The notes below the pieces were generated by a model. It did no database searches, had not been told where the DNA came from, and saw only the letters and a program-made list of their open reading frames with translations. The position numbers were made by a program, and so were the translations under genes. A DNA stretch of 40,352 nt from Escherichia phage Dewey: sequence record PQ850600.1; one strand, 5' to 3'. Each line of letters begins with the position of its first letter. The first letter of the stretch is position 1. This document shows positions 39,021-40,347 of this stretch, piece after piece.

Positions 39021-39314
39021 CCATTACAAAGCCCATCTACGGGTGGGCTTGATAATGAAACCGGAATTTATTCTGGGTAACCAGTTACGGCAGTACAGCG
39101 ATACAACCCAAGCCAGTAAGTGGGGAAATAACACTGGCAGCCACTGAAAGATGAACCTCCAGCCTTATGGCAAAAAAGATTCTTTGTGGTGGCGGACTGA
39201 TGGAAAGACATCGGTTATTGCAGAGACCATTCAATGAGTGGTCTCGACAATGGCTTATACCCTACACGGGATAACTTAACTGATATCCCTTTTAACGGAT
39301 AAACGGAGCCAACA

Positions 39315-39557
39315 ATGGCAGAGATTATTCCCATGACTGAAGAACAGAAATTCCAGTTAGAGATTTACAAACTGGTCATGAACCAGAACGCAGCCGCAGA
39401 AGAAGCATTTCAGTTCATTGGCACTGACGAGCTGAAGCTTGAGCTATTCAAAATTCACTTCCAGTCAGGTGGCGCTAATTCAGATATCACGACCCGCACA
39501 ATCGAAGCGGTACGTAAATCGAAGGAAGCGTTAGACCTGTTCACTACCGGAGCATAA
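39315..39557 (+). CDS. hypothetical protein (first gene of three-gene module)
   Basis: 80 aa; preceded by about 290 bp noncoding DNA and a GGAG RBS. Confidence 0.5.
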   Translation: MAEIIPMTEEQKFQLEIYKLVMNQNAAAEEAFQFIGTDELKLELFKIHFQSGGANSDITTRTIEAVRKSKEALDLFTTGA

Positions 39558-39559
39558 AC

Positions 39560-39847
39560 ATGGAACAACAAGAATTACCTCGCTGGCAGTGTCACAAGCA
39601 GGTATGGGCGTTAAAGATTCGACATATCGACCACAAACCAAACCCAGACCTTTCTGGCGTGTCGGGCGCATCAAGCTATGGGGCCACCATTCACCCGGAA
39701 GATGGCACATACGCGCCATTCGATGTAAGCCCTGAGTACGTTAACAAACATCAACCGGTCGCTGGCGGGTATTACGTTGTGTATGAGGATGGCTATGCAT
39801 CCTTCTCTCCTGCTGACTCGTTTGAATCCGGGTACACGAAAATCTGA
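39560..39847 (+). CDS. hypothetical protein (second gene of three-gene module)
   Basis: 95 aa; starts 3 nt after the upstream stop. Confidence 0.5.
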   Translation: MEQQELPRWQCHKQVWALKIRHIDHKPNPDLSGVSGASSYGATIHPEDGTYAPFDVSPEYVNKHQPVAGGYYVVYEDGYASFSPADSFESGYTKI

Positions 39848-39858
39848 CGGAGCCTCTG

Positions 39859-40347
39859 ATGACTACAGTCGCATGGGATGGAAAGACACTGGCATCTGAC
39901 ACCCAGGCATCAACTGGCAGTGTCGTTTGCTCCCTTTCTGAACAGAAGATATACACCCCGCCAGAGTCAGGTTGGGAGATTTACGGAAGCAAAGTCCTTG
40001 CCTTCGGTTGCTCTGGTGACTGCGGCGCAGAGATGGAATTACAGGATCTGCTTAAGCACAACCTCACGTATGCCTCCGAGTTCATGCCGACATTCTCCTT
40101 CACGGCTCTGGCTATCATCGGTGCTGGGCGAGCATACATCATCACCAAAGAGAAAGGCGAAACGCGGGCGAGCATATCGCTACAGGTTGAGCCATACGCA
40201 ATAGGCAGTGGCGACCTGATCGCGCGCACTGCCATGCACTGTGGCAAAAATGCGAGAGAAGCGGTACAAGTCGCAATTGATCTTGACTGCTATTCCGGCG
40301 GCAGCGTTGATTCGTTCCCCGCTGGGAAGCAAACAGAAGGGAAATAA
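39859..40347 (+). CDS. HslV-like Ntn-hydrolase (proteasome beta-subunit-like peptidase)
   Basis: 162 aa; begins M-TTVAWDGKTLASDTQ (Thr directly after Met, as in HslV TTIVSVRR...); later AIGSGD and GAGRAYIIT segments align with HslV GSGG/IITG regions. Confidence 0.6.
   Translation: MTTVAWDGKTLASDTQASTGSVVCSLSEQKIYTPPESGWEIYGSKVLAFGCSGDCGAEMELQDLLKHNLTYASEFMPTFSFTALAIIGAGRAYIITKEKGETRASISLQVEPYAIGSGDLIARTAMHCGKNAREAVQVAIDLDCYSGGSVDSFPAGKQTEGK

Follow-up and report, generated by a model that had tools for sequence, protein, structure and literature searches.

Proteasome homologs of phages (PPH) were described in 2021 in a bioinformatic catalogue (PMC8665760, Fuchs 2021), which gives a missing helix H2 as the distinguishing trait of PPH/RPC and places PPH in group I with HslV and BPH, apart from connectase. 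HslV genes lacking an HslU companion have also been noted in papers on phage genomes (PMC7823757). Here, we examined a gene of this kind in Escherichia phage Dewey (sequence record PQ850600.1); the whole stretch of 40,352 nucleotides (nt) that was analyzed is referred to below as the window. The gene is the last open reading frame (ORF) of the window, encodes a protein of 162 amino acids (aa), and follows two smaller ORFs encoding proteins of 80 and 95 aa. The 162-aa protein belongs to the PPH family and is a member of an already catalogued family, not of a new one; the assignment was made by published traits. We read the locus as an accessory slot that lies between the lysis and terminase genes of a temperate P22-like phage and contains three independently moving cassettes, the last of which is a PPH peptidase without a fixed partner, while the 80-aa DUF2560 protein and the 95-aa protein are unrelated neighbors of PPH that share the slot by chance. 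To this explanation as a whole we assign a probability of about 0.7.

The 162-aa protein was compared with the three nearest known systems. With PPH as published (PMC8665760) it shares a phage- or prophage-borne location, a compact subunit without propeptide or helix H2, a Thr/Asp/Lys/Gly core, and group I (HslV/BPH-like) similarity. Its 162 aa exceed the ~140 aa quoted for PPH, and the extra length consists of a hairpin at residues 33–47, absent in the most distant relatives, and a C-terminal tail that is disordered. Shared with HslV (ClpQ, peptidase family T1B) are the N-terminal nucleophile (Ntn) proteasome fold, the motifs GSG and D-x-x-S-G, and a sequence that opens with Met-Thr-Thr; unlike HslV, the 162-aa protein has no cognate HslU, no helix H2, and no match to a curated HslV or Proteasome model, and its PDB profile E values in this comparison were no better than 1e-3 to 1e-2. 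BPH (5ovs/5ovt, PMC5777263) is likewise a stand-alone group I homolog with no known ATPase partner, and Foldseek matched it to our model of the 162-aa protein at E 1.3e-6 with a query-normalized template modeling score (TMq) of 0.61–0.65. BPH differs in being larger (~185 aa), in having both apical helices, and in being bacterial rather than phage-borne. It also forms a tetradecamer, whereas ring assembly is a proposal for PPH.

Direct sequence searches mostly fail with the 162-aa protein, and its identity emerged from PHROGs, a family profile, and structure prediction alone. PHROGs assigned it to phrog_1040, “peptidase HslV family,” with E 5e-35. NCBIfam returned a single weak partial match, to archaeal proteasome beta (E 0.012, 15 bits vs a cutoff of 224); single-sequence phmmer gave no PDB match, and PADLOC gave nothing useful. 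In the PDB, a profile built from 21 homologs matched chains of proteasome beta and of HslV and nothing else, with E values between 1e-4 and 1e-2. The AlphaFold2 (AF2) model, based on an alignment of 21 homologs, had a predicted local distance difference test score (pLDDT) of 93.8 and a predicted template modeling score of 0.88. When this model was searched against the PDB, Foldseek yielded 146 matches at E ≤ 1e-3, and the top 50 were exclusively 20S beta subunits, BPH (5ovs/5ovt), and HslV (4ho7, 6kui), with a probability of 1.0 and TMq of 0.57–0.68. As modeled, the 162-aa protein has the four-layer alpha-beta-beta-alpha fold of proteasome beta subunits. A single helix (residues 57–66) lies between the central strands 48–53 and 81–88 of the model, and helix H2 is for this reason predicted to be absent.

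We then examined the active site. The alignment equates D14 with Asp17 of the proteasome, K30 with Lys33, S117 with Ser129, and D143/S146/G147 with Asp166/Ser169/Gly170, such that the 162-aa protein holds equivalents of the proteasome-type set Thr1, Asp17, Lys33, Gly47, Ser129, Asp166, and Ser169. Residues T2, D14, K30, G53, G116-S117-G118, D143, and G147 were each conserved in 89–99% of 132 family representatives. Among the best 150 representatives, 141 start with Met-Thr and 5 with Met-Ser, and since nearly all of them match the profile from residue 1, PPH carry no propeptide. Removal of Met from E. coli HslV exposes its Thr nucleophile. Host methionine aminopeptidase would remove Met1 of PPH and so expose a Thr providing both the free alpha-amine and the nucleophile, and the equivalents of Thr1, Lys33, Asp17, the Gly oxyanion, and Ser129/Asp166/Ser169 would form a proteasome-type active site. 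The conservation is observed; that PPH is active as a peptidase we infer. A preliminary description of this DNA, made from the sequence alone, had read the last ORF as an HslV/proteasome-beta-type protein in which loss of Met would free a Thr to serve as the nucleophile. That identity is borne out by phrog_1040, the profile matches, the AF2 confidence, and the Foldseek probability, and the conservation of T2 and the other proteasome-type residues is consistent with the suggested nucleophile. The profile search and the structure prediction, which the same description had proposed, both support an Ntn hydrolase fold.

As the proteasome-like superfamily includes the ligase connectase (PMC8665760), the 162-aa protein could be no hydrolase in vivo, serving as a ligase or transpeptidase like connectase or as a structural pseudo-enzyme. 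We regard this as highly improbable, given that the full proteasome-type residue set is kept as expected for active beta subunits and that PPH is grouped with HslV and BPH and not with connectase (PMC8665760).

The question of an ATPase partner bears on how such a peptidase would work. Neither HslU nor another Clp-type ATPase was found among the large ORFs of the window that were scanned, in agreement with the earlier statement that HslU is absent; the sole AAA-like protein among them is a DnaC/IstB-type loader (30944–31807). An HslU-like gene was also not found beside any homolog inspected. We propose that the compact PPH subunit probably self-assembles into a ring-shaped homo-oligomer and would serve as a peptidase or protease that works with no ATPase encoded by the phage. 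A protein homologous to HslV, in a phage with no HslU/Clp-type ATPase among its scanned large ORFs and with enterobacterial hosts that encode HslUV, might alternatively work via host HslU, either by forming a hybrid ATP-dependent protease of altered specificity or by blocking HslUV through HslU titration or poisoning of the HslV ring. This we consider unlikely. The modeled PPH subunit lacks helix H2 of the apical face; in our alignment, the position matching HslV Lys28, the residue that binds the HslU C-terminus, is Ser or Cys in PPH; and strict conservation of all catalytic residues speaks against a pure decoy. In addition, BPH, the nearest characterized group I relative, manages with no known ATPase partner (PMC5777263).

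The extent of the family was determined by an exhaustive profile search, which recovered 9,894 clusters (50% identity) at E ≤ 1e-3; with the cutoff set to E ≤ 1e-10, 5,073 clusters remained. We collected the PPH family from 118 phage records and 196 IMG/VR stretches, and every bacterial match that was inspected lay inside a prophage. Six jumbo-phage IMG/VR contigs (L066, L067, L069, L071, L072, and L094 in our numbering of loci) carry two or three tandem PPH paralogs of 180–245 aa, an arrangement that suggests, by analogy with multi-subunit proteasomes, hetero-oligomeric rings in those phages.

The window is a complete P22-like (Lederbergvirus-type) genome with its linear start at the small terminase gene, and the features of the slot are collected in Table 1. 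L009, an independent metagenome contig, is colinear over the end-to-start junction of the window and has an identical 5-nt gap there. This puts the 162-aa gene immediately upstream of gp3, where the preliminary description had placed it. Behind gp3 come a 499-aa ORF in the large-terminase position and a 721-aa ORF in the portal position, putative roles that we take from the Pfam annotation of the colinear L009 genes, followed by P22-type tail-accessory, injectosome, and tailspike genes. The junction between lysis and terminase genes is a general accessory slot, as phage L dec, HNH, Rha/KilA-N, and Sf6 gene 66 have all been found there. Outside the slot, the window has a second HNH gene, encoding a 266-aa protein (29260–30060), just upstream of the replication genes.

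Table 1. Features in and around the lysis–terminase slot of phage Dewey (positions are those of the window)
Feature	Position	Strand	Details
Small terminase gp3	1..489	+	Pfam GP3_package, E 8e-31; joins the window end on the circular map
AP2-HNH endonuclease (homing-type)	37703..38254		Same slot, upstream of the three ORFs
KilA-N/ORF11CD3 protein	38269..38766		Same slot, upstream of the three ORFs
85-aa phrog_875 protein	38763..39020		Same slot, upstream of the three ORFs
Intergenic spacer	39021..39314	+	294 nt; conserved, highly structured, cassette insertion hot spot
Hairpin GAGACCA-N9-TGGTCTC	39223..39245	+	~70 nt upstream of the DUF2560 start codon
Dyad GGGATA-N10-TATCCC	39268..39289	.	Present; at chance level
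DUF2560 protein, 80 aa	39315..39557	+	Pfam PF10834, E 1e-43; common resident of the P22-like lysis–terminase slot
95-aa protein	39560..39847	+	phrog_11049, E 7e-42; homolog of the Dec OB-fold domain, independent cassette
PPH-type proteasome homolog, 162 aa	39859..40347	+	Putative stand-alone N-terminal-threonine peptidase; starts MTT

Next, we asked whether the three ORFs form a unit. Neighbors of PPH were surveyed in 79 IMG/VR loci, earlier loci, and the window, which together gave 90 loci with a usable PPH gene, and frequencies in E. coli were counted in 5,426 complete genomes. The three ORFs had been reported correctly, including the Met-Thr-Thr start of the last, and they are separated by 2 nt (80-aa/95-aa) and 11 nt (95-aa/162-aa). 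This tight spacing, the recurrence of the trio in four further loci (L009, L020, L021, and L031, with PPH 96–99% identical), and the adjacency of DUF2560 and PPH in 30 of the 90 loci would suit a single protease module in which the 80-aa and 95-aa proteins are regulators or adaptors, with regulation of its own from the upstream spacer. We give that possibility very little credence. The trio is not a conserved module, and each pairwise combination is broken in some relative. All trio loci represent one lineage, since their PPH are 96–99% identical, and the 95-aa family adjoins PPH in 5 of 90 loci, every one of them from the window's own lineage. The closest E. coli relatives (PPH with 85–87% DNA and ~91% protein identity) have DUF2560, PPH, and terminase and no 95-aa gene, and many loci have PPH without DUF2560. 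A Morganella prophage of a different phage type carries a 61-aa gene, PPH, and a Terminase_2 small terminase subunit (TerS), with neither DUF2560 nor the 95-aa gene, while in L015 and L043 the order is reversed, with PPH before DUF2560. In a Citrobacter prophage (L005), DUF2560 and PPH precede a gene for an Ig-like 154-aa protein, and an Sf6-type TerS comes next. This 154-aa protein (L005 6475–6939) has weak Ig-domain matches and is a further candidate in the slot for a cassette of the capsid-surface or decoration type.

The small genes also occur apart from PPH. A 1,590-bp query spanning the DUF2560 gene matched 2,573 of the 5,426 E. coli genomes, PPH was present in 10 of them, and a near-DNA match to the 95-aa gene in none; DUF2560 stands without PPH in ~99.6% of the E. 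coli genomes that carry the slot. In phage Bas106, the slot contains a 95-aa gene (68% identical) that neither DUF2560 nor PPH accompanies, and members of the 95-aa family, more than 2,000 clusters in all, are found mostly in phages with no PPH nearby, Ralstonia phage GP4 and Bas106 among them. In L020, L021, and L031, the trio (PPH 99% identical) is joined to an Sf6-type TerS and a PBSX-type large terminase subunit (TerL), and this change of terminase pair puts a mosaic or recombination breakpoint at most a few bases away from the stop codon of PPH. Together, the comparisons show PPH to be without a conserved partner gene.

Expression signals were sought in the same region. A + strand sigma-70-like promoter was not found in 38600–40352, where matches were at chance level, nor was a convincing terminator. 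From the orientation of the cassettes and these two negative results, the three cassettes are probably read within the late operon. Of the preliminary description of a coupled trio under independent regulation, the close spacing stands, but the genes do not co-occur as a unit outside the window's own lineage. The regulatory claim is unsupported: a sigma-70-like promoter was not found, and the dyad on which it drew, though present where reported, does not exceed chance. Of random sequences matched to the spacer in composition and length, 57% contain a perfect 6-bp inverted repeat, and the dyad is deleted in L005 and L016, both of which still have DUF2560. What had been suggested to be an uncharacterized protease module is a family catalogued in 2021 (PMC8665760) and no module, and “uncharacterized” holds insofar as no experimental work was found. 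The part in defense, counter-defense, or host takeover that had been suggested for it is speculative.

We then examined where PPH sits in other phages. In the window's clade, it lies between the lysis genes and TerS, and the terminase genes downstream of it represent at least five type combinations of TerS and TerL: gp3 with Terminase_6, Sf6-type TerS with PBSX-type or Terminase_6 TerL, phrog_51 TerS with Terminase_6, Terminase_2 with Terminase_3, and an HTH-type TerS followed, where TerL would be expected, by a 494-aa ORF that has no Pfam match. A more distant group (L080–L098, 27–31% identical) has PPH between TerL and portal, L017 has it directly after a T7-type portal gene, and Erwinia phage Gungnir39 has it between head-tail adaptor and head-closure genes. 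Jedunavirus carries it in the tail region and SPN3US as gp1, and two homologs, at 57% and 34% identity, adjoin integrases. In 56 of the 90 loci, PPH has a terminase no more than four genes away, yet terminase adjacency is seen in only 6 of 20 PPH clusters (60% identity). Nearness to packaging genes thus marks some clades and not the whole family.

These positions bear on two further explanations. PPH might be tied to virion morphogenesis or packaging, processing a head, portal, or ejection protein or clearing a packaging inhibitor. The 56 of 90 loci near a terminase, the at least five terminase types, and the placements between TerL and portal, after portal, and among the head-tail adaptor and head-closure genes favor such a role, but the adjacency is limited to 6 of 20 clusters, homologs stand beside integrases, the lysis–terminase junction takes in accessory genes of many kinds, and PPH is absent from nearly all P22-like phages in the phage records and E. 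coli genomes searched. P22 assembly is not known to need a protease. We judge such a morphogenesis or packaging role quite unlikely, although PPH may have some link to late or packaging functions more generally. The second explanation, also doubtful, is that PPH is an ATPase-independent, self-compartmentalizing Thr protease expressed late with the packaging genes that destroys a specific host protein, one candidate being an immune sensor that responds to terminase, portal, or capsid proteins. Such a host target would explain why PPH in this clade remains fixed where the packaging module begins, whichever of at least five unrelated terminase types follows.

Several observations count against our preferred reading of a PPH peptidase in a slot of independent cassettes. 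Pfam gave no match for the 162-aa protein at E ≤ 1, Proteasome PF00227 included, and its similarity to canonical HslV and proteasome subunits is marginal, as judged by the PDB profile E values of 1e-4 to 1e-2. Our literature searches turned up annotations and the 2021 catalogue but no experimental work or assay on any phage PPH or HslV-like member. Furthermore, PPH in the window's clade keeps its place by the packaging genes across different terminase types, and that kept position could mean that PPH is functionally tied to late or packaging functions and that the slot is not neutral.

The spacer upstream of DUF2560, which had been described as about 290 bp of noncoding DNA, indeed contains no + strand ORF of more than 35 aa. 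It is 96–97% identical in relatives, and it takes in cassettes: Sf6 gene 66 is inserted at ~39212, and a 92-aa ORF replaces ~39057–39236 in L009. HNH and Gp49-family genes are inserted at the spacer in other phages. Its predicted RNA fold has a z-score of −6.2 relative to shuffled controls, it contains six 6-bp inverted repeats where 1.2 are expected, and an Rfam search of the spacer returned no known RNA family. A 9-bp stem (39029–39050) lies right behind the upstream stop codon. The hairpin listed in Table 1 covaries in seven P22-like relatives, with 98% of cells paired versus 33–47% in slid controls and with compensatory changes in four of its seven pairs. In L016, the hairpin is followed by six T residues, the form of an intrinsic terminator. 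The hairpin may be a processing, termination, or cassette-boundary element.

Of the two neighbor proteins, DUF2560 offered the less to work with, as structural and functional searches gave no lead. The 1,590-bp query spanning its gene also matched 201 phage records, including that of Sf6 gene 67. The 95-aa protein belongs to a strongly conserved family of 2,075 clusters at 90% identity with the motif GGYYVVYxDGYKSFSPAxAFExGY, whose members occur in phages of Enterobacteria, Ralstonia, Burkholderia, and Pseudomonas, and some of which are fused to a crAss001_48-related domain (PF21825). Its AF2 model had a pLDDT of 81, and the best PDB fold match was Dec of phage L (6e3c; Foldseek E 1.2e-3, TMq 0.64). 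By hhalign, it aligned with Dec residues 10–90, the OB-fold domain, at E 1.8e-5 and a probability of 78%. The 95-aa protein and phage L Dec (6e3c; PMC6449081) thus have an OB-fold domain in common, and their genes occupy the same slot just upstream of gene 3 in P22-like phages. They differ in that Dec has a C-terminal trimerizing spike (residues ~90–134), whereas the 95-aa protein ends at the equivalent of Dec residue 90, 44 residues short, and the spread and conservation of the 95-aa family go far beyond those expected for a cement protein specific to one capsid. The homolog in Ralstonia phage GP4 (gp05) is encoded in the head module, yet it is not among the proteins of the solved capsid. Because of the missing trimer spike and the absence of gp05 from that capsid, we do not call the 95-aa protein a decoration protein.

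Three further candidate relationships of the 95-aa protein were rejected. Sf6 gene 66 (Pfam Phage_gp49_66), from the same slot, proved unrelated, and in Klebsiella Jedunavirus the genes on either side of PPH (94 aa and 121 aa) are not homologs. The RefSeq label “DUF2829” on one distant 95-aa homolog was unsupported, with no Pfam match at E ≤ 1; DUF2829 is a Thoeris anti-defense (Tad2) family.

One of the ten complete E. coli genomes with PPH is that of E. coli MS 115-1 (H108; chromosome 3234867–3235343). MS 115-1 is a model strain for studies of cyclic oligonucleotide-based antiphage signaling systems (CBASS), and tests of counter-defense may find in it a suitable natural host. Collectively, our results add a family member and a map of its contexts rather than a new kind of system. 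Phage proteasome homologs are numerous (~9,900 clusters at 50% identity) and keep a complete catalytic site, and a P22-like phage of E. coli or Salmonella with PPH in a dispensable slot, together with near-isogenic relatives without PPH, makes a convenient genetic system for them. If the counter-defense reading is true, PPH would be the first viral proteasome-type counter-defense enzyme.

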